The notes under the pieces were generated by a model. That model was not told the origin of the DNA and ran no database searches. It saw nothing but the letters and a program-made list of their open reading frames with translations. A stretch of 64,000 nucleotides of DNA from Candidatus Falkowbacteria bacterium. GTDB lineage: Bacteria > Patescibacteriota > Patescibacteriia > UBA11705 > JACRDX01. Positions 12,840 to 51,963 of this stretch are shown in pieces (the first letter of the stretch is position 1; each line of letters opens with the position of its first letter). The position numbers and the translations under genes are program-made. The DNA is taken from assembly GCA_043798985.1 (NCBI GenBank), contig JAZDOE010000003.1:7917-71916 (forward strand). Direction: 5' to 3'.

Positions 12840-13040
12840 ATGAAAGAGGGCGCGCAGAAGAAACCGAGAAGTCCTGTTGTCAATCCACCTGCGGCAGGTG
12901 GTAGTGGAGGGTATGGTGAGCCGCCGGGAATGTGGGGTGAATTGCGGCTTGAGCAGAGGCTTCATCTGACGCCGCAAGTGCGCAAAAAGGTCGATCCTGC
13001 GAAGGTCAGGAGCAAGACCTTTTTGCCGCAGAAGCGGTAG
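12840..13040 (+). CDS. small GC-rich hypothetical protein (Gly/Pro-rich, basic)
   Basis: AAGGAGG RBS 7 nt upstream; high GC relative to flanks; stop lies inside a 20-bp-stem hairpin. Confidence 0.35.
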   Translation: MKEGAQKKPRSPVVNPPAAGGSGGYGEPPGMWGELRLEQRLHLTPQVRKKVDPAKVRSKTFLPQKR

Positions 13041-13084
13041 AGACGAGATACCCGCCTGCCGTCGGGCAGGTATCTCGTCTCTAT
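13037..13084. terminator. perfect ~20-bp-stem palindrome of the GTAGAGAC...GTCTCTAC family
   Basis: gtagagacgagatacccgcctgccgtcgggcaggtatctcgtctctat. Confidence 0.6.
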
Positions 13085-13162
13085 GGACAGGATCAAGGGC
13101 GTTGCAAAATGTAACGCCTTTTTTTATTTGTTTTCTGCGGCAAAATCAGATAAAATTAAGTT

Positions 13163-15265
13163 ATGGATTTAAACACGTTGATTAAACAATTAAACAGAGT
13201 TGGCAAAACAACGTCTGGTCGTTTGGCGAAATTGGGATTGCACACGGTTGAAGACCTGATTTTTTATTTTCCGTTTCGCTACGAAGATTTTAGAACAATC
13301 GTTAAGATAAATGATTTGCAACCTGAAGCCGTTGTGACTGTCCGGGGCAGAATTGAACTTATCGCGAATCGTCGAAGTTTTCGGACGCGAAAAAATGTGA
13401 CAGAAGCGATTGTTGCTGATGATTCCGGGCAATTAAGAGTTGTATGGTTTAATCAACCATTTTTAACAAAAACGTTAAAACAAGGCGATGAAATTTTTTT
13501 GGCTGGAAAAGTTTCGGGTGACGATTTTGCGGTGCAGATGATTTCGCCGATGTACGAACCCGCCTTCGCCCCGCTATCAGCGGGGCTTCGGCAGGGCGAG
13601 CTAATACATACTGCGAGAATTGTGCCGATTTATCCGCTGACCGCAGGCGTGACCGAAAAACAACTTAGATTTTTGGTCAAACAAGCTTTGCCAACGGTCA
13701 GGCAGATGAAAGATTATTTACCAAAAGAATTAATAGCGGCCGACAACTTTTTAAAATTAAGCGAAGCTTTGGAACAAGTTCATTTTCCGACAGATGAAAT
13801 ATTGTTGTCGGCCGCGAAAAAGCGGTTGGGTTTTGATGAATTGTTTTTAATCCAGTTAAGAATACAGCGGGCGCGGCAAGAACTTGATGCCTCATCCGCG
13901 CCCGCCGTAAAATTTTTGCAAAAGCCGACAAAAGAGTTTGTTGAAAATTTGCCGTTCAAATTGACTTACGCGCAAAGACAAGTGTCATGGGAAATTTTGC
14001 AGGATTTGGAAAAATCGCGGCCAATGAATCGTTTATTGCAAGGCGATGTTGGTTCTGGCAAAACAGTGACAGCCGCGATTGCCATACTGAACGTCGTGCT
14101 GAATGGATACAAAGTTGTTGTAATGGCGCCAACAGAAATTTTAGCGCAGCAGCATTTTAAAACTTTTCAAAAATTGTTTGCTAAAAATAATTTTAGAATT
14201 GCGATTTTGACGCGCGGCAGCAAGTTGGTTGGCGATGAAAAAATGACGCCGAAAAAAATGTTGAATATTGTTAATGCCGGAGAATTTGATTTACTGGTTG
14301 GCACGCACGCTTTAATTCAGGAAAAAATTAAAATTCCAAATTTGGGGTTTGTTGTTGTTGACGAACAACACAGATTCGGCGTAAAACAAAGAATGGCGTT
14401 GGCAAAAGCTAAACAACAAAATGTTGTTGTGCCGCATTTTTTGTCAATGACCGCCACCCCGATTCCGCGTACTTTGATGCTGACTGTTTATGGAGATTTG
14501 GATTTGAGCGTGATAAAGCAAATGCCAGCTGGTCGCAAACCGATAATTACAAAAGTGGTGGATGAAAATAATCGCGCGAAAGCTTACGAATTTGTGCGTA
14601 AAGAAATACAAGCAGGCAAGCCATGCCTACCGGCAGGCAGGCAGGCGTTTGTAATTTGTCCATTGATTGATCCGTCAGACACTTTGGGTTACAAATCAGC
14701 GAAACAAGAAAGCGACTTTTTGGCAAAGGATATTTTTCAAGATTTGAAAATTGGTTTGATGCATGGCAAGTTAAAATCCGCTGAAAAAGAAACGGTCATG
14801 GCAAAATTCAGCAACAAAGAATTTGATATTTTAGTTTCAACTTCAGTTGTTGAGGTTGGCGTGGATATTCCAAACGCCACGATAATGATGATTGAGGGCG
14901 CTGACAGATTTGGTTTGGCGCAGCTTCATCAGTTTCGTGGTAGAGTTGGTCGCGCAGAGCACCAGTCATATTGTTTTTTGTTTTCGTCTAATAATAATCC
15001 AGCGGCAATAAAGCGCTTGCAATATTTAGAAACTTGCATTGACGGGTTTAGCTTAGCTGAAAAAGATTTAGAATCACGCGGGGCAGGCGAGATTTATGGT
15101 AGCAGGCAGTCTGGTTTGCCAGAGTTTAAAATAGCTAAAATTACAGATTTTGAGCTTGTTGCTTTGGCGCAAAAACAAGCAAAATGGATTTTGGAAAACG
15201 CAAAAATAACGCCGGAATTATCAGCGCAAATGGAACGAATGGAATTTGTCGGACATTGTGAATAA
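13163..15265 (+). CDS. recG: ATP-dependent DNA helicase RecG
   Basis: Wedge domain plus SF2 helicase motifs 'GDVGSGKT', 'VVDEQHRFG', 'QLHQFRGRVGR'; 700 aa. Confidence 0.9.
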   Translation: MDLNTLIKQLNRVGKTTSGRLAKLGLHTVEDLIFYFPFRYEDFRTIVKINDLQPEAVVTVRGRIELIANRRSFRTRKNVTEAIVADDSGQLRVVWFNQPFLTKTLKQGDEIFLAGKVSGDDFAVQMISPMYEPAFAPLSAGLRQGELIHTARIVPIYPLTAGVTEKQLRFLVKQALPTVRQMKDYLPKELIAADNFLKLSEALEQVHFPTDEILLSAAKKRLGFDELFLIQLRIQRARQELDASSAPAVKFLQKPTKEFVENLPFKLTYAQRQVSWEILQDLEKSRPMNRLLQGDVGSGKTVTAAIAILNVVLNGYKVVVMAPTEILAQQHFKTFQKLFAKNNFRIAILTRGSKLVGDEKMTPKKMLNIVNAGEFDLLVGTHALIQEKIKIPNLGFVVVDEQHRFGVKQRMALAKAKQQNVVVPHFLSMTATPIPRTLMLTVYGDLDLSVIKQMPAGRKPIITKVVDENNRAKAYEFVRKEIQAGKPCLPAGRQAFVICPLIDPSDTLGYKSAKQESDFLAKDIFQDLKIGLMHGKLKSAEKETVMAKFSNKEFDILVSTSVVEVGVDIPNATIMMIEGADRFGLAQLHQFRGRVGRAEHQSYCFLFSSNNNPAAIKRLQYLETCIDGFSLAEKDLESRGAGEIYGSRQSGLPEFKIAKITDFELVALAQKQAKWILENAKITPELSAQMERMEFVGHCE

Positions 15266-15342
15266 TTTAGTCTTGACATTTCAAGATGGTTTTGCTACAC
15301 TAAAGCCATCTTTTTTGTTCGTCACAACCTGAAGGAGGGAAC

Positions 15343-15705
15343 ATGACGAAGAGAGTGAGGGGAAAGTTCGTAAAGGAAGCGGAGTATTGTTGCGGCTGCC
15401 ATATGCGCGTGGCGCCGCAGGATCCGCGTCGCGTTCAGCTGGACGACGGTGCGCCGGCGCACAGGACTTGTCTCGGCAAGACGCTCTCACGGGCAGTAGA
15501 GATGAAAATGCCGGTGCAGGACCTCAAGCCGTTGTGTGAGGCAGTGCGCCGTAGCGTGGGCGAGTCTGCGTACGGCAAGTTGTTTGAGCGCGAAGTCCAG
15601 CCGGTGCTGATGGATCAGCGGCGTGAAGAGCAGTTCGCGCAGATAGCGCAGTTGCGTCGCGAGCGGCGACCGCAGGCCGCCAGAAAAGCTGGCGCCATGG
15701 CGTGA
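15343..15705 (+). CDS. GC-rich hypothetical protein with Cys/His cluster (CCGCH...H..C); foreign-looking cassette
   Basis: TTGACA-17-TACACT promoter and GAAGGAGGG RBS upstream, hairpin terminator downstream; GC far above backbone. Confidence 0.45.
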   Translation: MTKRVRGKFVKEAEYCCGCHMRVAPQDPRRVQLDDGAPAHRTCLGKTLSRAVEMKMPVQDLKPLCEAVRRSVGESAYGKLFEREVQPVLMDQRREEQFAQIAQLRRERRPQAARKAGAMA

Positions 15706-15714
15706 AGAACGTCA

Positions 15715-15748
15715 CCCCCTTACTATAACGTAGTAGGGGGATTTTTTT
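15715..15748 (+). terminator. rho-independent terminator (cccccttactataacgtagtaggggg plus T-run); homolog of the terminator at 32227
   Basis: GC stem plus T-run; compensatory differences versus the 32227 copy. Confidence 0.7.
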
Positions 15749-23232: not shown

Positions 23233-23299
23233 AAGATTATAATGTTAAGTTAAGTTTGCATTTCTTATCAATATTGTATAATTAAGCAATCTGAATTGC

Positions 23300-23427: not shown

Positions 23428-23429
23428 TT

Positions 23430-24761
23430 ATGGACAACATTTTTAAAGCTTACGACGTGAGAGGCGTTTACCCGAATGAATTGAATGAGGAAATAATGGA
23501 AAAGATCGGAGGGGCTTTTGTTAAATTTTTAGGCGCAAGTTCAATATTGGTTGGTTGCGATATGCGAATTTCTACGCCGCAGCTGGTTGAAGCGTTTAAG
23601 CGAGGAGCGTTGAAAGGTGGCGCGCAAGTGACTGACCTTGGGCAAATTAGTACTGACTGTTTATATTTTGCTTCTGGGAAATATAATTTGGCTGGCGCTA
23701 TGATTACTGCGTCGCACAATCCAAAAGAATGGAATGGCGTGAAATTTTGCCGAGCTGGCGCAGAACCGATTGGGGCTGATTCTGGTTTGCGAGAAATTGA
23801 GTCATTAGTAATTAAACAAAGTATTTTGTCGGAATTTCGCGACCATTGCCAAAGTTTTATTGATAAAACAAAGCTGCGATCATTGAAAGTTGTGATAGAC
23901 GCGGGAAATGGAATGGCAGGCAAAATGGTTCCAGCTGTTTTTCAGGGGTTGCCGATTCAAGTTGTCCCGTTATTTTTTGAGCTTGATGGAAATTTTCCAA
24001 ATCACCAGCCAAGTCCGATTGAAAAAAAGAACAACTTGGCGTTGATTGAGCGGGTGAAAGTTGAGCGCGCGGATTTGGGTTTGGCGTTTGATGGTGATGC
24101 TGATCGTGTATTTTTTGTTGATGAGCACGGAGAAATGGTTGATAGTTCGTTTATCACCGCGATGATTGCGAAAAAAATGCTGGAAAAATTTCCACGCGAA
24201 AAAATTATTTATTCTGTGACAGTCAGCAACGCTGTGCCAGAGTTGGTCGCGAAAATGGGAGGCAGCGCGATTTTAACGAAAGTGGGGCATTCGTTTATCA
24301 AACAAGTGATGAAAGAGACCAATGCGATTTTTGGTGGGGAACATTCTGGGCATTATTATTTTCGCGATAATTTTCGCGCGGATAGTGGAATAATCGCGGC
24401 ATTGATCGTGTTGGAAATGTTGAGCGAAGCCTCGGCGCAAGACGGGCGAAACGGCAAACCGTTTTCAGAATTGGTTGGCGAATTCCAAACATATCATAAA
24501 ATTGAAGAGACGAATTTTCAGGTTGCCGATGTCAAAGTTGTTTTGGAAAATTTTAAAAAACAATTTGGAGCGAATTTGGCGCAAGATTTTGATGGAATGA
24601 GTTTTGAATTTAAAGATGCTTTTGGAAAAATAGAATGGTGGTTTAATGTCCGCGCGTCAAATACAGAGCCGGTTTTGCGGTTGAATTTGGAGGCAAAGAC
24701 AAGGGAGTTGATGGCAGAGAAGTTTGGTGAGATTGCTTCAATAATAAAATACCCCCGCTAA
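23430..24761 (+). CDS. phosphomannomutase/phosphoglucomutase (alpha-D-phosphohexomutase)
   Basis: Active-site 'TASHNPKEWNG', metal loop 'DGDADR', 443 aa. Confidence 0.85.
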   Translation: MDNIFKAYDVRGVYPNELNEEIMEKIGGAFVKFLGASSILVGCDMRISTPQLVEAFKRGALKGGAQVTDLGQISTDCLYFASGKYNLAGAMITASHNPKEWNGVKFCRAGAEPIGADSGLREIESLVIKQSILSEFRDHCQSFIDKTKLRSLKVVIDAGNGMAGKMVPAVFQGLPIQVVPLFFELDGNFPNHQPSPIEKKNNLALIERVKVERADLGLAFDGDADRVFFVDEHGEMVDSSFITAMIAKKMLEKFPREKIIYSVTVSNAVPELVAKMGGSAILTKVGHSFIKQVMKETNAIFGGEHSGHYYFRDNFRADSGIIAALIVLEMLSEASAQDGRNGKPFSELVGEFQTYHKIEETNFQVADVKVVLENFKKQFGANLAQDFDGMSFEFKDAFGKIEWWFNVRASNTEPVLRLNLEAKTRELMAEKFGEIASIIKYPR

Positions 24762-24775
24762 GTTTTAGCGGGGGA
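24753..24775. terminator. bidirectional hairpin cccccgctaagttttagcggggg (family also at 51300 and 39776)
   Basis: Perfect GC stem between convergent genes. Confidence 0.6.
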
Positions 24776-24781
24776 CTTGCT

Positions 24782-25762
24782 TTACGCGCCAGCGCCTGCT
24801 TCCGGCGCTGGCGTTTCGGTTGCGTCCGGTATCTTTACCAGCGCAACGAATTCTCTGAATGTTTGTGACTCTAACACCTGCTCTTCGACGCATGTCTCGA
24901 ACGCCATCTGAATCGTTGTCTTTCCGTTGTTACTGGCTACGAGCATCTGCGCGCGTTGCAAACACTCGGCGTACATTCTGACGGCTTGCAATATCTGTGA
25001 CTTTTTGGGCCATTTTTTGCAACCGACAGCAATGTCCATAACGACGCGGTAAACAAAGTCTCCGAAAAAGCGTTCGTCGGCACATTTGTTGCGCAGTTCT
25101 TTCTCTCTTTCGCGTGCGGCCTTGAGCTCTTGCTCGTTTGTGTTGAGTTGACTGAAAATAGGGAAATCATCCGCAGTAGCGGAGTTGATCAGTCGGAGCG
25201 CTGATGGAATTTCAACTCGCACACGTGGGGACGCTGCCCCGAGTGTTTTGATTACCCCGCTTCCAAATCCCAGCTCAATCATCCACGTTGCATAGTTGCC
25301 AGTACATTTCGTAAAGTATATGCGAGTGGGAATCCAGTTTTTTTCATTTTTCGGTAGGATCTTGGGCTTGCGGAACTTGCTCGTGGAAATCCAGAGAATT
25401 GCGCCTGGAATTTCGTGGTCCGGCTTGATCGCAGAATTCCAGTAGGGCTTGTCTTCCTCGTCTCTAAACGGCTTGTCAGGATGCGAGTGAAACTGATCGT
25501 CTTTGTCAGCGAAAAAGTAGAATCCTTGTCCGATGACCGAATGCCGGATGAACTTGCACAGGATCGTCCCCGCAATGAGCAATAAGACTAATGTGAGCAG
25601 ACCCGTCAGCAGCATTGGCAGTCCTGTCGTGAAAAGAAACAGGAGGGCAGCGAAAGCGCCAAGAAAGATGAGTCCAATTGCTTCGGCGACAGACCACCAA
25701 CTTTGAGGAAAAACTTTCCAGTACTCTTCGCATGCCGCACATTTCTTCATCTCTTCAACCAT
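24782..25762 (-). CDS. GC-rich hypothetical membrane protein (two N-terminal TM helices, cytoplasmic domain of unknown function)
   Basis: AAAGGAG RBS before MVEEMKK; GC-rich relative to backbone; no recognisable domain. Confidence 0.4.
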   Translation of the reverse strand: MVEEMKKCAACEEYWKVFPQSWWSVAEAIGLIFLGAFAALLFLFTTGLPMLLTGLLTLVLLLIAGTILCKFIRHSVIGQGFYFFADKDDQFHSHPDKPFRDEEDKPYWNSAIKPDHEIPGAILWISTSKFRKPKILPKNEKNWIPTRIYFTKCTGNYATWMIELGFGSGVIKTLGAASPRVRVEIPSALRLINSATADDFPIFSQLNTNEQELKAAREREKELRNKCADERFFGDFVYRVVMDIAVGCKKWPKKSQILQAVRMYAECLQRAQMLVASNNGKTTIQMAFETCVEEQVLESQTFREFVALVKIPDATETPAPEAGAGA

Positions 25763-25922
25763 GACCGACTCCTTTCGCAACAGGCCCGTTTGTCCCATTG
25801 CTCAAGTGCGTTGGTTAGCCTTTTCCAAGACCCTGTGCCTTGAAAATACCTAACCGCAGCGTTGTTAATGAACAGGACAACTTTATCATTTTTTTAAAAA
25901 GAAGTCAAATTGGATGGGATGT

Positions 25923-31354: not shown

Positions 31355-31545
31355 GCGAGTAGCAGAGTAGCTTGTAGGAAGTTAGGAAAAAGAGTCCAAA
31401 GTTTACTATATCCTGTCTTATTTTAGCTAAGTTTCTTGGGCGCGATTGACTTCGCGCTTTTTATGTGCTATAATGATTTGTTCTTTGATTTAAGGTCATA
31501 GACAACTGGCTGGGAAAATCCCCTGCCCTTTTCAAGGAGGAAGTT

Positions 31546-32217
31546 ATGAACGAGGAAACCATGAACAAGGCGTTGCGTCAGGTTCGTAGGATTGTTGCGC
31601 GGGAGACGGTGGCAAAGTTCGCGGGTGTTCTCGTGAAGGTTCCGGCGCAGGGCGGACTGCAGTTCATTGAGAAGAGTTTGACCGTTCCGGAGTACTACAA
31701 CTCCGCGATGAGCTGCGCTGTTGGAACAACTGGAGCGGAACACATCAACAGGATGTTCTTCGGACTCATGCCGAGCGAGGACTGCGGTCGCGAACGGCTT
31801 TTCGACATGATCGTGCAGAAGTGGACGCTGGAAGACGGTGAGTGGTACATCCATTTGCTGTTCACCAAGTCCGACCGCAAGATCGCGAAGCACACGTTGT
31901 CATTCCCGCCCAAGTTCAGGGCAGACGCGACAGACATTCAGCTCTCGCACAACGGACTTAGCTTCGTTCGGGTACTGGACGCGGAGACGTTCGTCTCGAC
32001 GTGCGGCGAGTGCGGCAAGCGGATCTACTCCAGCCACGCGCCGAATCCGAAGTTCGCGCGGAACGCGGCCGAGGCGAAGGCTACGGGCAAGGAGCGCTAC
32101 AAGTGCCCGGACTGCTTGCCGAGAGAGCTGCGGGTGCCTGCGCCGCCGAAGACTCGCTTCGAGCGGGATCAGGAGGAACTGCGGCAGGCGCAGTTCAGAG
32201 GAATGCGGCGCGGTTAG
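31546..32217 (+). CDS. GC-rich hypothetical protein with C-terminal C4 zinc ribbon (CGECG...CPDC); foreign-looking cassette
   Basis: TTGACT-17-TATAAT promoter at ~31446-31480, AAGGAGG RBS, terminator at 32227; GC far above backbone. Confidence 0.5.
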   Translation: MNEETMNKALRQVRRIVARETVAKFAGVLVKVPAQGGLQFIEKSLTVPEYYNSAMSCAVGTTGAEHINRMFFGLMPSEDCGRERLFDMIVQKWTLEDGEWYIHLLFTKSDRKIAKHTLSFPPKFRADATDIQLSHNGLSFVRVLDAETFVSTCGECGKRIYSSHAPNPKFARNAAEAKATGKERYKCPDCLPRELRVPAPPKTRFERDQEELRQAQFRGMRRG

Positions 32218-32226
32218 TCTGCGCCA

Positions 32227-32263
32227 TCCCCCTCACTACAACGTAGTGGGGGGTGATTTTTTT
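32227..32263 (+). terminator. rho-independent terminator ccccctcactacaacgtagtgggggg plus T-run
   Basis: Homologous to the 15715 terminator with compensatory stem changes. Confidence 0.7.
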
Positions 32264-35928: not shown

Positions 35929-38350
<2,422 letters not shown>

Positions 38351-38873: not shown

Positions 38874-38901
38874 GTAGAGACGAGATATATCTCGTCTCTA
38901 C
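38874..38901. repeat. 26-bp perfect palindrome gtagagacgagatatatctcgtctctac (identical copy at 39743-39770)
   Basis: Exact duplicate flanking the 39064-39735 cassette; same GTAGAGAC...GTCTCTAC family as 13037, 47773 and 58317. Confidence 0.7.
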
Positions 38902-38984: not shown

Positions 38985-39063
38985 TTGACAGAATATTTTC
39001 AAAATAGTAAAGTGAATTGTTCAGAAGTTGCTTGACAATTTGGCTGACAAATGGAGGTGGCGC
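38985..39063 (+). promoter_or_regulatory. cassette leader/promoter, copy 1 (TTGACA...aaatagtaaagtgaattgttcag...cttgacaattt...tggaggtg)
   Basis: ~70% identical to the leader at 39822-39897 upstream of trpS, including both TTGACA boxes and the GGAGGTG RBS. Confidence 0.55.
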
Positions 39064-39735
39064 ATGAAAAAGAAGGTGGAATGGCCGGTGGATGTGTCGC
39101 CATGGTTTGGCGAAGCGCAGAAGGTTGTTGAAGCGGTTTTGCGCGCAGGCGTGCCGATAGATAGCGCGATTCTGGATGACTGGAATGCTGGCACAGATCA
39201 AAACGGAGTAAGGATCAAGGGACCGAGAATTATTTGGGGCTTGGAAGCTTGTCGCATGTCAAGATGCAGTGGGTGCAAGTTGTTTTGCGCTGTTGGTGCA
39301 GACATGCGCAAGACGATGATTCAAAATGATAATGCGCTCCGCCTTCGTCGAACATTGTGCCTCGCGAAGAAAAAACATTTGTCGTTTTTGCCTGTGACAT
39401 GCTGGCAAAAGTACCTGAACTGCAAGACCATTGAGCAATACAACGCCGCGTTCGTGGCGTTTGTCATGGAGCGATGTGACACTGAAGAAAAGATGCATGC
39501 AGAGCTTGCATGGATTCTCGGATTCCGTTTGCTGTATCTGAATGAAGAAGGAATTGGATGGGATTGTGCTACGCTCTTGTCAAAAGAGCAGGAAATGAAG
39601 CGCGAAATCATTGGGCGCGTCATGATGGAACTTGTTTGTCAGGGAGAATCAGCGCGACTCCCTTGGTTGTTCACATACAACTGCCAAAACAAAGATTTTT
39701 GGAAAGCGCTCGCAGATTTGAGTCCGCTCCGCTGA
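39064..39735 (+). CDS. GC-rich Cys-rich hypothetical protein (cassette gene 1)
   Basis: GGAGGTG RBS; 224 aa with 'CRMSRCSGCKLFCAVG' and 11 Cys; no recognisable family; bounded by identical palindromes. Confidence 0.45.
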   Translation: MKKKVEWPVDVSPWFGEAQKVVEAVLRAGVPIDSAILDDWNAGTDQNGVRIKGPRIIWGLEACRMSRCSGCKLFCAVGADMRKTMIQNDNALRLRRTLCLAKKKHLSFLPVTCWQKYLNCKTIEQYNAAFVAFVMERCDTEEKMHAELAWILGFRLLYLNEEGIGWDCATLLSKEQEMKREIIGRVMMELVCQGESARLPWLFTYNCQNKDFWKALADLSPLR

Positions 39736-39742
39736 TCGTGCG

Positions 39743-39770
39743 ATAGAGACGAGATATATCTCGTCTCTAC
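39743..39770. repeat. second identical palindrome atagagacgagatatatctcgtctctac, followed by hairpin cctcgctaaaatttagcgggg (39776-39800)
   Basis: Exact copy of 38874-38901. Confidence 0.7.
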
Positions 39771-39821
39771 AAATATCCCTCGCTAAAATTTAGCGGGGCA
39801 TTTTTTGTTAATTCATATTTG

Positions 39822-39897
39822 ACAAGGGATTTTTTAAATAGTAAGGTGAAGTGTTCAGGGGGGCCTTGACAATTTAATGCAAAAGTGGAGGTGAATT
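39822..39897 (+). promoter_or_regulatory. cassette leader/promoter, copy 2, upstream of trpS
   Basis: tttgacaagggattttttaaatagtaaggtgaagtgttcaggggggccttgacaatttaatgcaaaagtggaggtgaattATG. Confidence 0.55.
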
Positions 39898-40923
39898 ATG
39901 GAACAGAGCGCACAGAAGGCAGTTGTGTTGTCCGGTATCCGGGCAACAGGCAAGATGCACCTTGGAAACTACTTGGGAGCCATTCAGCATTTCGCGAGAC
40001 TTTCGCATGATCCGACGAAAAAGTGTTTCTATTTCATCGCGAATTTGCACACATTGACAACATGGACAAAGCCAGATGATCTTCGGAAGTATCTGGCAGG
40101 CATTGTGCTGGATTTTGTCGCGTGCGGCGTTGATCCGCAGACCGCGACGATTTACGCGCAGTCAAGCGTGCCAGAACTTGGCGAGCTTTGCTGGCTGTTG
40201 AACTGTTTGACTCCGGTTGGAGATTTGCTGGGAATGGGGCATTACAAGGACAAGCAGGAAGCAATGAAAGCGACTGGCGAAATGGTCAGTTCTGGATTGT
40301 TGATCTATCCTGTGCTGATGGCCGCTGACATTCTTGGTCCAAAGGCGAATTTGGTGCCAGTTGGGCAGGATCAGCACGCGCATGTGGAATTGGCGCGCGA
40401 TATCGCGCGCAGATTCAATCGGCTGTATTGCGAAGGATTCTTTCCGATTCCAGATTTGCTGGAAGGGCCGGGTCTTCGCGTGCCCGGGCTTGGCGCGTCT
40501 GGCAAAATGGGCAAGAGCGATGACCAGAGCGGAGTTATCAACTTGGACGATGCTCCGGATGTCGTCACACGCAAATTTTTGGTGGCAGTCACTGACACTG
40601 CGAGACAGCGTCGCAAGGATCCGGGAAATCCGGAGAATTGCAACATTTTCACGTTCCATCATTTGATCAGCACGCCCGACGAAATCGTGTGGGCGCAGAA
40701 TGGCTGTATGAACGCTGGTATCGGTTGTCACGATTGCAAGCTGGTCGTGGCTGGACATGTAAATGATTTGCTCGCTCCGATCCAGCAGAAACGCAAGGAA
40801 CTGGAGCAATTGGGAGAATCGTTTGTGTGGGATTTGCTGGCAGACGGAGGCGCTTTTGCGCGCAATGTCGTTGGCAAAACCGTTGAGATAGTGAAAGAGA
40901 AAATGGGCGTTCCTGCCTATTAG
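39898..40923 (+). CDS. trpS: tryptophanyl-tRNA synthetase (class I aaRS, TrpS-like; GC-rich cassette gene 2)
   Basis: 'GKMHLGNYLGAI' HIGH-region variant typical of TrpS, 'KMGKSD' KMSKS variant, 341 aa. Confidence 0.8.
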   Translation: MEQSAQKAVVLSGIRATGKMHLGNYLGAIQHFARLSHDPTKKCFYFIANLHTLTTWTKPDDLRKYLAGIVLDFVACGVDPQTATIYAQSSVPELGELCWLLNCLTPVGDLLGMGHYKDKQEAMKATGEMVSSGLLIYPVLMAADILGPKANLVPVGQDQHAHVELARDIARRFNRLYCEGFFPIPDLLEGPGLRVPGLGASGKMGKSDDQSGVINLDDAPDVVTRKFLVAVTDTARQRRKDPGNPENCNIFTFHHLISTPDEIVWAQNGCMNAGIGCHDCKLVVAGHVNDLLAPIQQKRKELEQLGESFVWDLLADGGAFARNVVGKTVEIVKEKMGVPAY

Positions 40924-40956
40924 ATTAACTGACAAGCGGAACAATGGAGGTGTGTC

Positions 40957-42417
40957 ATGAAAAGAGGCGTGGATGATGGATGGCGATGGCCCAAGGCAGG
41001 GTTTGGCAGCGATGAGCTGAAGAAAGTGCTTGAGGAAATTGATAGCATCGGTTCGCTTTACGAACGGGAAAAGCCCCCGATGTGCTATCCGGGTACGAAC
41101 TTGGAATACCTTGCGTTTCATGAAGTGTATAGAGTTGTCGGCAGGTTGCTTGCGAAGCAGATTAATCAGATTGGATGTCACACGCAGGGCAAGTTGAGCG
41201 AGGGCGGTTTTAAGCGGGCGCAGGAGATGGAAAAAGAGGTTATCGGTTGGATTGCTTCTGTCCTTGGCGGAATGCCTGATACGGTTGACGGGTACTTCTG
41301 CGGAGGCGGGACTGAAGCGAACATTCAGGGATTGTGGATTGGTCGCGAATGGGTGCGCAAGGCACATCCGATTTCCAGAGAAGAGCTTGAACTTGGTATC
41401 AAGCCTGGCATTGTCGTGTTTACGACGCCATTGCTTCACTATTCGTTGGTCAAGGCAGTTGAATTGCTTGGCATTGGCCAGCATACGCGCAACAGAGATG
41501 TTGGAACGCAGGAATTCATGTTTGACCCGAGCGGAAGCGGACTTTGCTTTGTTGAAATGGACGACAGAGGACAGATGTCGATGCCCGCGTTGAAAGATGC
41601 GTTTGAGGAGAAGTTTTTGCATGGATACCGACGTTTCATCTTCGCGCCTACGGTCGGCACTTGCTTGATGGGATCCATTGATCCTGTCCCGGAAATCGCA
41701 AGATTCATCGCTGATCGTGAGCGAGATACGGACGCTGGTTTGTACTTGCACATTGACGCGAGCTTCGCGGCATATACGGTGCCGTTCTTGAATCCAGACT
41801 TCAGGTTTGGATTTGACGTTCTGGCAGACCAGCCTGAGCGTTTGAAAGGAATGTCCATGACGGTTGACGCGGACAAAATGGGTGGTCTGCCGTATCCGTC
41901 TGGCGTTTTCCTGTGTAGGAAGGGGCTGATGGATTTTGTGAATCGCCACGCAGACTACGTCAATGGACATCGGGACGATACGGTCTCTGGGTCGCGGTCT
42001 GCGCTTGCGCCGGTCATGGCGTGGTACTTGTATCAAAGGTTCGGCTATGACGGTCACAAGGAATACGTGGCAAACTGCATCAGGCGCAGAGATTACTTGG
42101 TGCAGCTTGTCAAAGTCCAGTTGCCGTGGGTCAAGGTTCTGCCGTGCTCGCCGTTGGTGAATTTCGCGCCCATGGAGATCCCGATTGATCCTGTGAAGGG
42201 AGACATTCCGGAGCAAGTGTTGGGCGGTGAGTTGCTGAAGGATTATGAGTTGCGTTCCGGCAAACTGCCGTTGCGAGCTGATAATCCAAATGGTGAGCAC
42301 AGCACTGTTTATAAGATCTGCGTCATGCCGCATCATTCGCGGGAGCAGTTGGAGCAGTTCGTGAGGGATATTGCCGAGGCGCGCAGGGCAGAGATTGCAA
42401 GGACTCATGTGGTGTAG
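40957..42417 (+). CDS. group II PLP-dependent amino-acid decarboxylase (MfnA/tyrosine-decarboxylase-like)
   Basis: 'GGTEANIQGLW', 'HIDASFAAY', PLP-lysine region 'SMTVDADKMGGLPYPSGVFLCRKG' (D in place of the usual H before the Lys). Confidence 0.75.
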   Translation: MKRGVDDGWRWPKAGFGSDELKKVLEEIDSIGSLYEREKPPMCYPGTNLEYLAFHEVYRVVGRLLAKQINQIGCHTQGKLSEGGFKRAQEMEKEVIGWIASVLGGMPDTVDGYFCGGGTEANIQGLWIGREWVRKAHPISREELELGIKPGIVVFTTPLLHYSLVKAVELLGIGQHTRNRDVGTQEFMFDPSGSGLCFVEMDDRGQMSMPALKDAFEEKFLHGYRRFIFAPTVGTCLMGSIDPVPEIARFIADRERDTDAGLYLHIDASFAAYTVPFLNPDFRFGFDVLADQPERLKGMSMTVDADKMGGLPYPSGVFLCRKGLMDFVNRHADYVNGHRDDTVSGSRSALAPVMAWYLYQRFGYDGHKEYVANCIRRRDYLVQLVKVQLPWVKVLPCSPLVNFAPMEIPIDPVKGDIPEQVLGGELLKDYELRSGKLPLRADNPNGEHSTVYKICVMPHHSREQLEQFVRDIAEARRAEIARTHVV

Positions 42418-42536
42418 CGCTTGAGTATTCCGTCGTTGTTAAAAACAGCGGCGGATTTTTTGTTTTACAATAATTATCAAGCGTGAGATGATAAAAAAAG
42501 CAAGAGTAGCTGGTAGCTTGTAGATGTAAGAGAAAT

Positions 42537-43566
42537 ATGAAGAAACAAAGTTTCAAATTGGATTTGAACGAGAATGTTGCGGATATTTATTATCCGAGCT
42601 TGTTGAAGTTGCAAAAAAGATTGAGCGATGTTCAATTTTACGCGAGAGCAAATGATGAAATCACAGTAAAACGGGTGATAGCAAAATACAATAAAATTTC
42701 AGCTGAAAATATCGTTTTGACAAACGGTTCGTATCACGCGCTTGAGTTGCTGTCCGGTTTTTTGCTTGACAAAAACGATGAGATGATAATTTTGGCGCCG
42801 ACATTTCCGTTTTACGATAAGTTTGAAAAATATAAAAAGTTTAAAATAAAAAAAGTTTTTTATCGCGCCGCGACGATTGCAATTGATGAAATAATTGGGG
42901 CGATTACTAACAAAACCAAAATTGTTTATATTGCGAATCCGAATAATCCAATCGGTTCAAGTTTGTCGCGGCGCGAGTTGTTAAAACTTATTAAAATTTG
43001 CGAGAAGAAGAAAATTTTCGCATTGATAGATGAAGCATATTGCGAATTTGGAGGAGAATCAGTTGTAGATTTGGTTGATAAATATAAATATTTAATTGTT
43101 TTACGGACATTTTCAAAATTTTTAGGACTTGCGGGCATTAAAGTTGGATATATTGTTGTGAATTCGGCCCGCGCACAAGAATTTGAATTTGTGCGCGGGC
43201 CGTCGTTTGCGATTAGCAAATTTGGATTGATTGTTGCTGAAACAATTTTGCGCAACCCTAAATTAATTAAAAAAATTCAAAAAAGAAATAGATGCGACTA
43301 GAAAAGTTTTTTTTGCGTATTGTTTGAAAAAGAAAATTTTCTTTTATCCTTCTGTAACAAACTTTGTTGTTATTAAGTTGGAACGCATGCAGAAGTTTGT
43401 TGACTTCATGAACAAAAACGGAATCTTAGTTAAGTCGCTGGATAATTATATTGATGATAAAAACAAGGTGTTGAAAAATTGCGTTCGCGTGACGTTGGCG
43501 CCAATGAGCAAAATGAAATATTTTTTTGCGGCGTTTGACAGATTTTTGGCAGATCAAGACATTTGA
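42537..43566 (+). pseudogene. class-II aminotransferase (HisC-like), split into 42537-43301 and 43324-43566
   Basis: N-terminal part 'NPNNPIGS...FSKFLGLAGIKVGY' (PLP Lys region); the C-terminal remainder is in a different frame after stop codons; low-GC backbone composition. Confidence 0.5.
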
Positions 43567-43657
43567 CAGCGGGGTCGCTATTTGCTAACTTGTGAAGTTA
43601 GTGTGTATTGGACGTGGCGTCTTTCGTATAACGAACATTGACAACGTGGAGGCTGCC

Positions 43658-44617
43658 ATGAAACAGAATGAAGAAACGACTGATGAAAGAAAAAGCGCTG
43701 TTAAGGCTTATGCGTTGGCAGTTCTTGGAGTAGTATGCGCCGCGCTTGGGCCTGTTCTTTTTCAGCGACTATCAACGGACTTTCCCGCTATCTGGGTGAT
43801 ATTCTGGTTTCTCTTGTCAGGCGGAGGTTTTTCTTTGATCGCCGGCGCGATAATTCTGCGTTTGAAGGGGCAGCGCGGTTTGGGTACGCTCAATGGCAAG
43901 ATAATCGCCATGCTAGCGCTTGTTGGCTTGACATGGACGCTCTACTTTTACCTCTATGTTTTTGCTATTAGTATTAAGGGTGCAACAGAGGCAAGTGTTT
44001 TGACGCGCGTCGGGCCGTTGTTTAATGTGATTTTCGCGGCCGCGATTCTGAAAGAAAAAGTCAAAAGTTGGGCGCGCGTGTTCTTAGCAGCTATAATTTG
44101 TGTTGTTGGTCTATCAGTATCAACTGGCGAGTTCGTTCAAAGCTTGACCGCTGGAGTTTCGCTATGCCTTGTCGTGGGGGTAATGGCAGGCATGTTTGGA
44201 GCATTGAACTACGCGCTATTAACACGGGAAGAGCGGCGCAATCAGGTCGATCCATTGATTGCCGTTGGTATATCAATGTGTTTTGGCGCAGCGATTTTGT
44301 TGATGTGGCTGTTTGTTGGAGAGCACAATAGCAACATTGTCTTTCCAGTAAATAGAGAGCAATGGCTGAGCATTGGTGTCCTTGGCATAGTGACGGTAGC
44401 CATGTGGCGGTATTGTTTCGTCCTTGCCGCAACGGCAAGCAAAATGAGCAAAATCGGCATGGTTGAATATCTGATTCCGATCTTTGTCGCGATCTATGCT
44501 TGGCTGATTAGTAACCAAACAGCAGATTATGCCAGCATGGGGGGCGGGCTCGCGATCATTATCATAGGGCTACTTATAGCAGATGCCAGCGTTGAAAAGA
44601 AAAAAGAATCGAGCTGA
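43658..44617 (+). CDS. EamA/DMT-superfamily transporter (10 TM), GC-rich
   Basis: Two EamA-like halves; GGAGGC RBS before MKQNEETTD. Confidence 0.65.
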   Translation: MKQNEETTDERKSAVKAYALAVLGVVCAALGPVLFQRLSTDFPAIWVIFWFLLSGGGFSLIAGAIILRLKGQRGLGTLNGKIIAMLALVGLTWTLYFYLYVFAISIKGATEASVLTRVGPLFNVIFAAAILKEKVKSWARVFLAAIICVVGLSVSTGEFVQSLTAGVSLCLVVGVMAGMFGALNYALLTREERRNQVDPLIAVGISMCFGAAILLMWLFVGEHNSNIVFPVNREQWLSIGVLGIVTVAMWRYCFVLAATASKMSKIGMVEYLIPIFVAIYAWLISNQTADYASMGGGLAIIIIGLLIADASVEKKKESS

Positions 44618-44948
44618 GAGGCAGGATAGTTCTGCTGTCAGGAGGATGTAAACAACATCTTCCTTTTTAATTCTTGACATAGATAAAATATTTGCTATAC
44701 TAACAATATATGAACAGTATTGATTGCAGAATGGTTTTGAATTATTGGTGGCACAACAAGACTTCGTCGTAAAGTTCGGATTTATTTTTTGCTCATTTGA
44801 GACTTCCGAATTTTACGAGGAAGTCTTTTTAAATTTACGTTGACGCTTGCATGTTTTGTAAATTTGTTATAAAGTATGCGGTCGCTAGCGGAAATTGTAC
44901 AGGGTGTCATTTTCGCTATGAACATTGATATTGATAAGGGGGCGTGTC

Positions 44949-45536
44949 ATGAAGATTGAGCGTGGAGTTCCGAGTCAGGCAAAAGCAGTTGAACTGGTTT
45001 CTCGCGGGTTTGTCCAACCCGTTTCACAGGCATTGATCGCCGATACGAGAGACCATTTGCACGCAGGTGATTTTGTGTATTCTGCAACGGCTGATGACCG
45101 GTTGGTAGGTTTTGCGGTTTTCGATGAGCTGCCCAGCAAGCTACTGTTCGTTGCGGGGATCATGATTGATCCTGCCCATCAAGGCGAAAAGGTTGGACGC
45201 CAGATGATTCTGAAAGCAAAGGATCAGGTCAGTGCCGAGTTTCTCGGGCTTCGCACGCAGTCGCCGAGAATGTGGTCTGCTGGGCGCAGCATTTGCGCGG
45301 AGTGGTATCCGAATTTTGACAATGGGGTTTTGCGGTTCAGGCTTCAGGCGCAGGCGGAACTTATCCGCGCGCGACTTGGTCCGAAGTACGAGTACCCTGT
45401 TGTTGAAAGCTGCTACGGCGGCGCGTTGTATGGCGAAAAGCCGACACATCGCGAGCCTAGTGTTCAGTCGTGGTGGGACAGCATCTGCAATTTCGCGCGC
45501 GGAGATGCGGTGTTGTGTATTGGTAAGTTTCGCTGA
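44949..45536 (+). CDS. GNAT-family N-acetyltransferase, GC-rich
   Basis: 'LVGFAVFDELPSKLLFVAGIMIDPAHQGEKVGRQMI' acetyl-CoA binding motif; TTGACA-17-TATACT promoter at ~44675-44705. Confidence 0.6.
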   Translation: MKIERGVPSQAKAVELVSRGFVQPVSQALIADTRDHLHAGDFVYSATADDRLVGFAVFDELPSKLLFVAGIMIDPAHQGEKVGRQMILKAKDQVSAEFLGLRTQSPRMWSAGRSICAEWYPNFDNGVLRFRLQAQAELIRARLGPKYEYPVVESCYGGALYGEKPTHREPSVQSWWDSICNFARGDAVLCIGKFR

Positions 45537-45595
45537 TACAATGGGGGTAGGTGCAAAGCATCTGCCCTCGATTTTTTAAAAATAGTTTTTAAAAT

Positions 45596-46744: not shown

Positions 46745-46781
46745 AAAAAAAGAGGTCAGTTTCGTTGAAACTGACCGGAAG

Positions 46782-46854
46782 TGCCGGCGACAGGGTTTGA
46801 ACCTGCAACCAACGGTTTTGGAGACCGTCGCTCCGCCATTTGAGCTACGCCGGC
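46782..46854 (-). tRNA. tRNA-Trp (anticodon CCA)
   Basis: Reverse complement GCCGGCGTAGCTCAAATGGCGGAGCGACGGTCTCCAAAACCGTTGGTTGCAGGTTCAAACCCTGTCGCCGGCA; anticodon loop CTCCAAA. Confidence 0.8.
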
Positions 46855-47104
46855 ACTTCTTCGCCAAAAGATTGCCACAGGGGGTTGGCGTTCCATTCGG
46901 CGAAGAAGCCACAAAGGAGACAGCCATGAACAGTTTGAATTTAGCATAGTTTTAAAATTAAATCAAGAGCAATGGCTGGTTTTTGTGAAAAAACGCGCAA
47001 TTTTGCGCGTTTTTTGGTTTAGGATTTTGTTTATTTTTGGAAGTATGCTAATTTATTTATATGTACCTTAGGTTAAAAAATAACTAAGAAAAGCGGAGGC
47101 GAGC

Positions 47105-47776
47105 ATGGACGCGAAAAAACTGTTTGCCAGGCTTGATGCTGATACATGGTTCTTTGACTTGGACGGAACATTGTATTCAGCAATGAATAAAATCAGCCAA
47201 GTATTTAAGGCAAAATACTTGGAATTGGTGATGGCGGTTTATGGTCTTGATTTGGCAAAAGCCGAGCAAAAACTTATTGAACTTCAGTTCAAACACAAGA
47301 CGCGTTTGATGCGTCCGGCGCTTGTCAGAGACGGCGTGCCAATAGGGATTATTTCAAGCTTTACGGCCTTTAGAATTGACGCGAAAAAGCTTGGAATCGC
47401 GTTGCCACGAAAGCGGCGAGAGAATCTGTTGGCTGCCGTGGGAGAGCGCATTGTGCTGACCAATAGCCCTGAATCTTACGCTTGGCAAATGTTAAGCGCG
47501 CTTGGCGTGGGAGATCTGTTTGCGCAGGTGATTGGCGCGGAAAGCATGGACAATGGCCGTGTTTTCAAACCAGAATGCGGAGCATATAACGCGCTCATCG
47601 TTGCGCTGGGAAATGGACGACGAGTCGTGTTGGTTGATGATGAGGAACCAAATCTGGACGCGGCCGTTGAAATCAGCCACGCGATTGGCAATGTCGCGGT
47701 AAGCAATCTCGTGACAATTCTTGTTGGAAATAAGCCGAAATCATCAACGCATTTGAACATCGCACATTTGGATTAA
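47105..47776 (+). CDS. HAD-superfamily hydrolase, GC-rich
   Basis: Motif I 'FFDLDGTLY', motif IV 'VLVDDEEPN'; ends at palindrome 47773-47803. Confidence 0.55.
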   Translation: MDAKKLFARLDADTWFFDLDGTLYSAMNKISQVFKAKYLELVMAVYGLDLAKAEQKLIELQFKHKTRLMRPALVRDGVPIGIISSFTAFRIDAKKLGIALPRKRRENLLAAVGERIVLTNSPESYAWQMLSALGVGDLFAQVIGAESMDNGRVFKPECGAYNALIVALGNGRRVVLVDDEEPNLDAAVEISHAIGNVAVSNLVTILVGNKPKSSTHLNIAHLD

Positions 47777-47803
47777 TAGAGACGTATTGCAATGTGTCTC
47801 TAC
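47773..47803. repeat. imperfect palindrome atagagacgtattgcaatgtgtctctacc (GTAGAGAC family)
   Basis: Family member with two spacer mismatches. Confidence 0.5.
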
Positions 47804-47974
47804 CTTTGTGGAGCAGGTTGAATCAACTTTGCTCCATTTTTTTATTTTTCGTGATATAATCGTAATATGGCTACGAATTGTGGCTACGAACCTACGAATC
47901 ATTCGAATATTACGAATCTACTAATTAATTAGTAATTGGTAGTATTCGCAGTGATTTGTAATTGGTAGCAGTAT

Positions 47975-50709: not shown

Positions 50710-50713
50710 TTTT

Positions 50714-51247
50714 ATGAAAATTTTGTTGCATGTTTGTTGTGCTGTTTGCGGCGGCGCGGTAATTGAAAAATTAAAACAAGATGACAATAAAGTCATTGCG
50801 TTTTTTTATAATCCCAATATTTTTCCGGAGGAAGAATATATGCGCCGCCGCGACGAGGCCGCGCGAATTTGTAAAGAAATGGGAATTGAATTTATTGAAG
50901 GTGAATACGATTATAAAAGTTGGTTGAGCAAGGTTAAAGATTATGCTGGAGAAAAAGAAGGCGGAAAGCGATGTGAAATTTGTTTTGCGATCAGATTGAG
51001 CGAGGCCAGCCAAAAAGCAAAAGAACTTGATTGCGATGCGATTGCCACTACATTAACAATAAGTCCGCATAAAAACGCGGAAGTTGTGAATAGAGTCGGA
51101 AAAGAATGTTCTGAAATTTATGGATTGAAATTTATTGATACTATTTGGCGAAAAGGCGGAGGATTCAAACGGGCGTGCGAAATTGCCAAAGAACAAAATG
51201 TTTATCATCAGCATTATTGCGGCTGCGAATATAGCGTCGGCTACTAA
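50714..51247 (+). CDS. queH: epoxyqueuosine reductase QueH (DUF208)
   Basis: 'MKILLHVCCAVCGG' N-terminal Cys cluster and conserved C-terminal 'HYCGCEYS'. Confidence 0.75.
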   Translation: MKILLHVCCAVCGGAVIEKLKQDDNKVIAFFYNPNIFPEEEYMRRRDEAARICKEMGIEFIEGEYDYKSWLSKVKDYAGEKEGGKRCEICFAIRLSEASQKAKELDCDAIATTLTISPHKNAEVVNRVGKECSEIYGLKFIDTIWRKGGGFKRACEIAKEQNVYHQHYCGCEYSVGY

Positions 51248-51299
51248 TTACTAATCACTACGAATTGTTACCAATTACGAATATACGAATAAAAAAATA

Positions 51300-51324
51300 C
51301 CCCGACTAAGTTTTAGCGGGGGGC
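51300..51324. terminator. bidirectional hairpin ccccgactaagttttagcgggggg (same family as 24753)
   Basis: Perfect GC stem at the 3' end of a GC-rich minus-strand gene. Confidence 0.6.
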
Positions 51325-51330
51325 GTTTGT

Positions 51331-51963
51331 TCACGTTTTCCTACACGTGGCGTAGACAAAGTTTTTCCGAAGTTCGTGGAATATCGGCGAACCTGCAAGT
51401 AATTCCCATGTGCCGCTACAAAAGAACATTTCTTTGCCATCGCCACCTAAGAAATCAAAGTGGCCAGCGCTCATTTTGTGCGGATAATGCGTTGCCAGCG
51501 CTGTCAATTCAACTGGCGTAAGAACGCGTCGCCCGTGTTCGGCAAGTTCGGTCTTGATGTCAGTGACCAGTTTGCCAACGTCTTCTCCTGATCTACTGAT
51601 GTCTGTGTCAAATATCAAGTACGGCTGTTGTGCTTCTTCGGTAAACTTGGACAGATGGCCATCCGCGATAGCGCCACGTCCATAGTGCGCAGTGTTAGAA
51701 TTGGGGCGATTCCTGGTTTGATGATCAGGCGCTGGGGCCCAAATCTTGGAAAGCTGGTGAGCTAATGGAACCATTGTTTGCGGAATAATGACAAGTACTC
51801 GCACTGATGTGTCATGGTCGTACATCCAACGCGCTGCATCTACGAGCAGTGCGTTGAATGTTTCGCGAAAAGCAAGCTCGCTTTTATTCGCGACCTGATG
51901 ATAGCCAAGCTTGATCAACTGCTCAATCTGGCGCTCGACGATTCCAACGAAGTGTCTGGGCAT
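51331..51963 (-). CDS. GC-rich hypothetical protein (210 aa, no recognisable domain)
   Basis: ORF; composition clearly distinct from flanks; terminator immediately 3'. Confidence 0.4.
   Translation of the reverse strand: MPRHFVGIVERQIEQLIKLGYHQVANKSELAFRETFNALLVDAARWMYDHDTSVRVLVIIPQTMVPLAHQLSKIWAPAPDHQTRNRPNSNTAHYGRGAIADGHLSKFTEEAQQPYLIFDTDISRSGEDVGKLVTDIKTELAEHGRRVLTPVELTALATHYPHKMSAGHFDFLGGDGKEMFFCSGTWELLAGSPIFHELRKNFVYATCRKT

Follow-up and report, generated by a model that had tools for sequence, protein, structure and literature searches.

Do the GC-rich genes scattered along a chromosomal segment of Candidatus Falkowbacteria descend from one mobile source, or do they have several origins? 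The segment in question (hereafter the window) is a 64,000-nt stretch of contig JAZDOE010000003.1 (assembly GCA_043798985.1), whose host we take to be a tiny-celled groundwater bacterium of the candidate phyla radiation (CPR), or Patescibacteria. A sequence-only reading of the window had described eleven dispersed GC-rich open reading frames (ORFs) as self-contained cassettes, with a common promoter architecture, strong ribosome-binding sites and homologous terminators, all derived from one evolving mobile or cassette-like source. That description held for the GC content, the Shine-Dalgarno (SD) sites and the terminator homology, failed for the distinctness of the promoters and the specificity of the palindromes, and was about half right on the lack of known protein families. 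The supposed family is in fact four things: accessory transcription units of mixed age, a conserved tryptophan-related (Trp) block, repetitive extragenic palindromic (REP) elements of the GTAG class, and two families of copied terminators. As for the units, the reading preferred here, to which a probability of roughly 0.55 is given, is that they are accessory genes acquired at different times, probably from GC-richer Patescibacteria that use SD sites.

All eleven ORFs exist, with starts set from the SD site at 25762 (the minus-strand ORF whose end is at 24782), 39064, 43658 and 44949. They are named below by their listed coordinate (c12840, c15343, c24782 and so on), and "unit" refers to the transcription unit to which each belongs. 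Ten units are formed, since the tryptophanyl-tRNA synthetase (TrpRS) and decarboxylase genes stand together in unit 6 (Table 1). A scan for SD-led ORFs of at least 25 aa found no additional intergenic ones, and the inventory is therefore complete; a GC-rich pseudo-ORF at 46734-46949 is accounted for by the tRNA-Trp gene at the same place.

The eleven ORFs have a GC content of 0.48-0.63 and a third-codon-position GC content (GC3) of 0.50-0.79, while both values are about 0.40 in the backbone. A GGAGG-type SD site is present in 11 of the 11 genes, 4-8 nt upstream of the start, and in none of 59 backbone genes. The median duplex energy with the anti-SD sequence is -11.6 kcal/mol for the eleven genes vs. 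-0.9 kcal/mol for the backbone (Mann-Whitney p = 9e-8), the host 16S rRNA itself lying outside the window. A -10 box that ends 4-12 nt upstream of the start codon was found in 12 of the 59 backbone genes, in none of the 11 unit genes and at 4.8% of random positions. Such near-start boxes are a signature of leaderless mRNAs, and many first genes of the backbone look leaderless from their upstream sequence. The core genes lie in tightly packed AT-rich operons translated without SD sites. Each accessory unit has a good -35 box in its promoter, a genuine 5' untranslated region (UTR), a strong SD site and, mostly, a strong intrinsic terminator insulating it from the neighbouring operons. Genomes mixing leaderless, non-SD and SD initiation have been described (GeneMarkS-2 classes, PMC6028130; anti-SD loss in Parcubacteria, PMC9297842), and the window is like them in that most genes are SD-less and -10 boxes occur a few bases before starts; unlike in those genomes, the SD-led minority here coincides with GC-rich, terminator-insulated units.

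Codon usage points in the same direction. In this respect, backbone control genes correlate with the window backbone at 0.80-0.93, and the units at 0.07-0.62. For c31546 the value is 0.07 with the backbone and 0.68 with the relative L082; for c15343, it is 0.19 and 0.55, respectively. The genes of the Trp block are intermediate (0.37-0.62 with the backbone). The codon usage of the units splits into several classes, with no single shared bias. Composition and translation signals together support the view that the units are foreign to the backbone, and the units display the deviant composition and codon usage by which horizontally acquired genes are recognised. Two relatives, L082 and L084, have a GC content of 0.47-0.50 and a GC3 of about 0.55-0.65, and most of their genes carry SD sites; since the units resemble such GC-richer, SD-using Patescibacteria in GC content, codon usage and SD use, donors of this kind would be the most likely ones, the older arrivals being by now partly ameliorated.

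Concerning the promoters, the claim that they differ from those of the backbone was not borne out: the sole 12/12 match to TTGACA-17-TATAAT in the window (at 58358) is the promoter of a backbone gene, and several unit promoters match at only 9 of 12 positions. The upstream regions of the units share no sequence, with one exception, a common promoter/5' UTR module of 89 nt (71% identical) found before c39064 and TrpRS. Around these two genes, two successive series of REP, terminator, promoter/UTR and gene are found within 38874-39907 (38874-39063 before c39064, 39743-39897 before TrpRS). This doubled modular order suggests that c39064 was placed there by duplication of the TrpRS control region.

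The 3' ends are more distinctive. Strong terminators, consisting of a hairpin and a T-run, follow nearly every unit, and in the pure backbone stretch at 1-12 kb, terminator-like sites are no commoner than in shuffled sequences. The proposed relatedness of some terminators survived a shuffle test, the pairs c15343/c31546, c24782/c51331 and c39064/c51331 all scoring above the best of 200 shuffled sets. Five of the ten terminators belong to two homologous families (family 1, at 15716 and 32229; family 2, at 24752, 51300 and 39778), and the 3' hairpins comprise at least five unrelated sequence types in all. The compensatory changes are also real: the hairpins at 15716 and 32229 differ at three stem positions, with pairing kept at all of them, and include one double change from U-A to C-G. 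The unit terminators are hence supported as including true homologues preserved as hairpins. Neither family motif was present in any of the relatives' loci retrieved, and the families would have arisen when short hairpin modules were copied or replaced locally, and would then have drifted while selection kept the pairing. A viral contig of high GC content (about 0.54; L098, IMG/VR UViG_3300009379_000004) carries at 6780-6810 a bidirectional terminator, GCCCCGCTAAAATTTAGCGGGGC, whose core is the same as that of the family-2 terminator of c39064. This single match to a degenerate 19-nt palindrome is at about chance level by estimate, and was set aside as probably fortuitous.

A second kind of hairpin had been counted among the traits of the cassettes. 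The 8-mer GTAGAGAC occurs seven times in the window vs. 0.11 expected, and all copies are intergenic. The five palindromes that contain it are indeed there (at 13037, 38874, 39743, 47776 and 58317), but they are not specific to the units, as those at 38874 and 58317 follow backbone genes. When the GTAGAGACGAGAT...ATCTCGTCTCTAC hairpin was searched for in metagenomes, nine contigs were returned, otherwise unrelated to each other. One of these, JGI contig Ga0100392_1099553 (L096, positions 1-1684), carries a gene for a REP-associated tyrosine transposase (RAYT), flanked on both sides by identical 29-nt GTAGAGACG...CGTCTCTAC REPs, one REP interrupting the gene in frame. These are identical over 29 nt to window positions 38874-38902. 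The RAYT product matches NF047646 (E 5e-15, or 1e-17 after removal of the inserted REP) and PDB 4ER8 (E 3.5e-5), the latter being the structure of E. coli TnpA-REP. To our knowledge, REP elements in CPR-type genomes have been little described. The five GTAGAGAC palindromes are short, extragenic and repeated, with a conserved GTAG head, which is typical of REP elements (PMC2817692, PMC3733652). This head, the link with a RAYT gene and the position 3' of genes, including two of the backbone, identify the GTAGAGAC...GTCTCTAC hairpins as apparent GTAG-class REP elements, a known kind of repeat. They are like REP/RAYT (REPIN) systems (PMC2817692, PMC3733652) in their GTAG tag, their extragenic position, usually just 3' of genes, their variable centre and their RAYT-flanking copies in L096; they are unlike them in amounting to only five copies in 64 kb, with no RAYT gene in the window. 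Such elements would spread by means of the RAYT and land in any 3' intergenic space. The REPs beside the units need no cassette model.

The history of two units could be followed in a sister genome. The comparison used one contig (L001, GCA_016212745.1), collinear with the window over 23.8-32.8 kb at 81-86% nucleotide identity. There, c31546 is found at the same locus with its SD site, a GC content of 0.60 and a GC3 of 0.81 (0.79 in the window). Its synonymous divergence (dS) of 0.69 is in line with the 0.6-0.9 of the backbone genes on either side, and the ratio of non-synonymous to synonymous divergence (dN/dS) is 0.20; this marks c31546 as a real gene that has been passed on since the split from L001, and shows it to be under purifying selection. 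The terminator of the L001 ortholog is an unrelated sequence, though the surrounding DNA aligns, so that terminators turn over separately from the genes that they follow. When third positions are scored as strong (S) or weak (W) in the window vs. L001, the counts are 119 SS, 19 SW, 21 WS and 17 WW, a table in equal agreement with stationarity and with decay from a GC3 of about 0.92. The 5' UTR (window 31475-31545, L001 6495-6569) holds a block, GATTTGTTCTTTGATTT(A/G)AGG..ATAGACAAC, that is better conserved than synonymous sites, and ends, just before the SD site, in a small hairpin whose sequence differs between the two genomes. This 5' UTR, which has no Rfam match, may be a regulatory leader.

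The case of c24782 is different. The whole unit is missing at the syntenic L001 site, about 1.26 kb in the window being matched by about 39 nt, and the C-terminus of PGM differs in L001. The proposed comparison with syntenic loci has thus revealed at least one unit that is an insertion/deletion polymorphism. The junction alignment shows no target-site duplication. At the right edge of this insertion lies an inverted-repeat element of about 90 nt (25921-26009; TGTCATTTCGA...TCGAAATGACA). The repeat AGGGATTTCTCACCCTTTTCAAGGGTTCGAAATGACA has two copies, in 25921-26009 and in 33739-33775, with 2 mismatches. Of these two units, c24782 is thus absent and c31546 present in L001. The ages of the units evidently differ: from the locus alignment, c31546 would have arrived before the split, and c24782 after it, unless it was lost in the sister.

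The eleven proteins show no similarity among one another. The statement that most belong to no known family was right for about half of them: five are orphans, and five fall in Pfam families, namely TrpRS, the decarboxylase (group II pyridoxal-phosphate (PLP)-dependent family), EamA, GNAT and HAD. For c12840, c15343, c24782, c31546 and c39064, profile searches of Pfam, NCBIfam, PHROGs and PADLOC gave no match. Looking up proteins of the window by exact sequence gave no record either. In the deep protein search, c24782 matched itself alone, and the c31546 product had, besides its own record (V1902_01010, 100%), a single relative among 5.8 billion proteins, 79% identical and from a second Falkowbacteria metagenome-assembled genome. 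As for c51331, it forms a small family restricted to Patescibacteria; its predicted structure (predicted local distance difference test score, pLDDT, 77) has no significant fold match in the PDB, and that of c31546 is unusable (pLDDT 37). IMG/VR scans with c51331, c39064 and c31546 returned no relatives, and no link of the units to phages or defence systems was seen in the PHROGs, PADLOC and IMG/VR scans.

Five of the eleven genes (39.9-47.8 kb; TrpRS, decarboxylase, EamA, GNAT and HAD) lie in the Trp block. TrpRS is followed by the same decarboxylase and adjoins tRNA-Trp in L082, L084 and L085, as in the window, and the GNAT gene stands directly 5' of an M20 peptidase gene in L082, as in the window (identities of 53% for GNAT and 60% for M20). 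The linkage of tRNA-Trp, TrpRS and decarboxylase spans 39898-46854 in the window, 5428-9974 in L082, 796-4637 in L084 and 10001-12660 in L085. This order conservation covers TrpRS, decarboxylase, GNAT and tRNA-Trp, the EamA and HAD genes having been placed in the same block in the window only. The nearest relatives of TrpRS are all from Patescibacteria, the best matches being from Parcubacteria and Falkowbacteria: identity is 69% to L082 and L084, and 58-60% to proteins named Falkowbacteria. In a third assembly fragment (L083), a TrpRS that is 92% identical has the same promoter/UTR. Given the conserved order in other Parcubacteria, the 39.9-47.8 kb region is an old syntenic Trp neighbourhood, not a set of dispersed cassettes; the block (TrpRS, decarboxylase, GNAT, tRNA-Trp) would be old and syntenic across Parcubacteria. 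A class I/II aminotransferase gene between the decarboxylase and EamA genes is split into ORFs of 254 and 80 aa (42537-43566), has the lowest GC content of the region (0.34) and may be a decaying gene. That the block genes, including an EamA exporter, form a route from tryptophan to tryptamine, its N-acetylation and its export is speculation.

The block also contains a short leader ORF, and similar ORFs with tandem Trp codons were found in three genomes: the window (44710-44772, WW, MNSIDCRMVLNYWWHNKTSS), L082 (5268-5321, WWW, MNKIVLNNWWWYLHETR) and L084 (3382-3438, WW, MYRFTASTYRWWGTKTFS), within leader regions at 44674-44832, 5230-5390 and 3382-3500, respectively. In all three, there is a hairpin with a T-run behind it, and the 5' arm of this hairpin contains the leader stop codon; the window and L084 leaders have the downstream sequence AGTTCGGATT(T)ATTTTTTG in common. 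The leader is upstream of GNAT-M20 in the window and in L082, and of a GCS2-family gene in L084. Tandem regulatory codons in a short ORF, with a terminator behind it, characterise trpL-type attenuation; these leaders, which show the arrangement in three genomes, are candidate Trp-sensing leader-peptide attenuators in Parcubacteria, the fold being one minimum-free-energy prediction. They differ from trpL in that the stop codon lies in the 5' arm of the terminator stem and the controlled genes are not those of trp biosynthesis. This position of the stop codon would suggest the opposite logic, with read-through when Trp is plentiful. Rfam returned only tRNAs, with no riboswitch or T-box in the unit leaders.

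The reading of the units as accessory genes, unrelated to each other and entering or being replaced at different times, has several points against it. Roughly half of the 16S genes of Parcubacteria have no anti-SD motif (PMC9297842), and the host 16S rRNA lies outside the window; the sister comparison covers about 9 kb of one sister genome; no donor for the five orphans was found in the family and deep protein searches; the GC3 of about 0.8 kept by c31546 in both lineages through a dS of about 0.7 fits amelioration and active maintenance equally; and the conserved order of TrpRS, decarboxylase and GNAT fits vertical descent as well as ancient transfer. Moreover, in two other contigs of Falkowbacteria, the TrpRS gene has an SD site and a GC content somewhat above that of its neighbours; for certain genes, SD use may thus be a long-standing trait and not a relic of a donor. 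These observations lead to an alternative, possible but unlikely, in which the units are not foreign but a vertically inherited minority kept SD-dependent and GC-rich by selection, for example a regulon read only by ribosomes with a free anti-SD, as in the case of the Bacteroidetes ribosomes without bS21. It would explain why TrpRS, decarboxylase and GNAT are SD-led in distant relatives too, with M20 SD-less in both the window and L082, why SD motifs are conserved in the window, L001 and L083 despite the diverged surrounding UTR, why the GC3 of c31546 is so similar in the two lineages, and why SD-led minorities occur in other Falkowbacteria contigs. However, the SD-led genes of L085 and L087 are not GC-rich, so that SD use and a high GC content do not go together as a rule; c24782, a strict orphan, is an indel; the units share no one codon bias; and the third-position table of c31546 needs no maintenance of GC3. 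A stronger form, with two expression regimes (an SD-independent or leaderless core, and a GC-rich, SD-dependent, terminator-insulated minority under selection as a translationally separate regulon), is considered quite improbable.

The derivation of all units from one mobile or cassette-like source with a conserved 3' hairpin, like integron cassettes with attC, is very unlikely and was largely refuted. It could draw on the two terminator families with their compensatory change, on the module common to c39064 and TrpRS and on the indel at c24782, but it is opposed by the unrelated proteins, the mixed codon usage, the dissimilarity of the other upstream regions, the Trp synteny across Parcubacteria, the different terminator of the L001 ortholog, the absence of the terminator motifs from all retrieved relatives and the REPs behind backbone genes. 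In addition, the window ORFs scanned or read and the c24782 junctions yielded no integrase, transposase, attC-like site or target-site duplication. Integron cassettes are promoterless and form one array in one orientation next to intI, ending in attC. The units resemble them as small unrelated ORFs each ending in an imperfect palindrome; they differ in having a promoter-like site each, in lying on both strands and dispersed over 39 kb, with no recombinase among the ORFs scanned or read, and in ending in plain intrinsic terminators, i.e. short G+C stems with T-runs, in place of attC. Mobilisation of REP-bracketed genes as passengers of a Y1 transposase, as in IS200/IS605-type elements, is highly improbable: two near-identical REPs (38874 and 39743) do bracket c39064, c12840 and c47105 each have a REP exactly at the stop codon, and the L096 RAYT gene has identical REPs, one of them inserted; yet c24782, the one documented indel, lacks a REP at either junction, c15343, c31546 and c51331 have none, backbone genes carry REPs 3' as well, and no RAYT gene lies in the window. 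That four of the five REPs adjoin units is not clearly above expectation, the units holding, by a rough estimate, about 40% of the usable intergenic space (p of about 0.09). As for an assembly chimera, in which GC-rich pieces of another organism were joined into a Falkowbacteria contig, its probability is negligible. The sharp switches in GC content and translation signals at the unit borders might suggest it, but eleven alternating joins in one contig are implausible, and the borders lie within intergenic DNA bearing backbone-type repeats; the c31546 unit at the same locus in L001 and the same TrpRS 5' region in L083, both independent assemblies, show that the units are not an assembly artefact.

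In their architecture, the units resemble by analogy phage morons or genomic islets, in a genome otherwise not using SD sites. Morons are autonomous extra genes in lambdoid prophages, and the likeness lies in one or two genes set between resident operons, provided with a sigma-70 promoter and a factor-independent terminator of their own, and differing from their neighbours in base composition. The units differ from morons in that several are conserved syntenic cellular genes (TrpRS) and that the host backbone initiates translation differently. Nor do they lie in a prophage or phage: on either side, they have housekeeping genes of the cell (RecG, RadA, PGM, LigA, GatCA and UvrD), and no PHROG or IMG/VR relatives were found. 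With genomic islets and other atypical acquired genes, they share deviant GC content and codon usage, lineage-restricted orphans and presence/absence between close relatives; they are unlike them in the all-or-none SD difference (11/11 vs. 0/59) and in the GC3 of about 0.8 kept by c31546 through a dS of about 0.7.

Table 1. Positions of the GC-rich transcription units and of other features in the 64,000-nt window.
Feature	Position	Strand	Description
Unit 1	12786..13128	+	Promoter TTGACT-16-TAAGAT (12786-12813), SD AAGGAGG, 66-aa ORF 12840-13040 (GC 0.58)
Unit 1, 3' end			REP hairpin 13037-13084 overlapping the stop codon, then terminator 13095-13128
Unit 2	15273..15747	+	Promoter TTGACA-17-TACACT, SD GAAGGAGGG, 120-aa orphan ORF 15343-15705 (GC 0.63, GC3 0.73), family-1 terminator 15716-15740
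Unit 3	24745..25908	-	Promoter TTGACT-17-TAAAGT (25908-25880), SD AAAGGAG, 326-aa membrane orphan ORF 25762-24782, family-2 terminator 24774-24752
Unit 4	31446..32262	+	Promoter TTGACT-17-TATAAT, conserved 5' UTR of about 70 nt, SD AAGGAGG, 223-aa ORF 31546-32217 (GC 0.60, GC3 0.79)
Unit 4, further			C-terminal CxxC...CxxC motif in the protein; family-1 terminator 32229-32253
Unit 5	38985..39805	+	Promoter/5' UTR copy, SD GGAGGTG, 223-aa Cys-rich orphan ORF 39064-39735, REP 39743-39770, family-2 terminator 39778-39798
Unit 6	39819..42462	+	Promoter/5' UTR, TrpRS 39898-40923, PLP-dependent decarboxylase 40957-42417, SD GGAGGTG before each, terminator 42429-42455
Unit 7	43563..44672	+	Promoter TTGACA-17-TAACTT, SD GTGGAGG, EamA-family transporter 43658-44617, terminator 44640-44664
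Unit 8	44674..45578	+	Promoter TTGACA-16-TATACT, leader ORF 44710-44772 (MNSIDCRMVLNYWWHNKTSS), terminator hairpin at about 44797-44832
Unit 8, downstream part			GNAT-type ORF 44949-45536 (SD AAGGGGG), terminator 45542-45570
Unit 9	47090..47842	+	SD GCGGAGG, HAD-family hydrolase 47105-47776, REP 47776-47803 right behind the stop codon, terminator at about 47810-47842
Unit 10	51300..52027	-	Promoter TTGACG-17-TAAATT (52027-51999), SD AAAGGAGG, 210-aa ORF 51963-51331, family-2 terminator 51322-51300
tRNA-Trp	46781..46854	-	Anticodon CCA; member of the conserved Trp neighbourhood
REP palindrome	38874..38901		GTAGAGACGAGATATATCTCGTCTCTAC; 4 nt 3' of a backbone gene (AdoMet decarboxylase-like, 38466-38870)
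REP palindrome	58317..58344		GTAGAGACAATTCATGAATTGTCTCTAC; between two backbone genes
Low-complexity intergenic repeats	129-263, 8275-8311, 23299-23429, 27186-27315, 33103-33210, 34386-34451, 35039-35147, 47870-47975, 51250-51300		

Outside the units, the gene content of the window is consistent with a CPR/Patescibacteria chromosome, with a TraG/VirB4-like ATPase, ComF, MurG, RecG, RadA and type IV pilus parts, as well as LigA, GatCA, FolD, GlyA and three four-helix-bundle genes of the 23S-rRNA-intervening-sequence type. The latter lie within 8 kb (28668-29027, 30144-30494 and 35929-36282; PF05635 in the L001 orthologs). Two adjacent paralogous genes for secreted or membrane proteins (17086-18501 and 18963-20237) are 80% identical over 300 nt (17963-18262 and 19753-20052) and have other short repeats in common. 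Low-complexity repeats of the type AATTTCGAATTT, TACGAAT or GTAGCTTGTAGC occupy many intergenic regions, and one 130-nt pair, at 23300 and 27186, is 81% identical.

For CPR specialists, the tRNA-Trp/TrpRS/decarboxylase block, the GNAT-M20 pair and the Trp-Trp leaders may be of more interest than the single-source claim from which the analysis started. As for that claim, the window is a caution against treating a common mobile origin as proven by shared hairpins, since here they are REP elements and locally copied terminators. The preferred reading, that of acquisition at different times, would mean that genes arriving in a streamlined genome are made expressible and insulated by their own promoter, SD site and terminator. 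Should the two expression regimes prove true after all, the units would form a regulon, which might for instance be read only while the anti-SD is free, and which would include a tryptophan-sensing module together with lineage-specific zinc-ribbon and membrane proteins, possibly for host interaction. The presence of a strong SD site in 0 of 59 core genes and in 11 of 11 GC-rich accessory genes is a clean natural contrast. The ribosomes of CPR/Patescibacteria are unusual, and this contrast makes it testable whether, and for which genes, SD-led initiation still operates in them.

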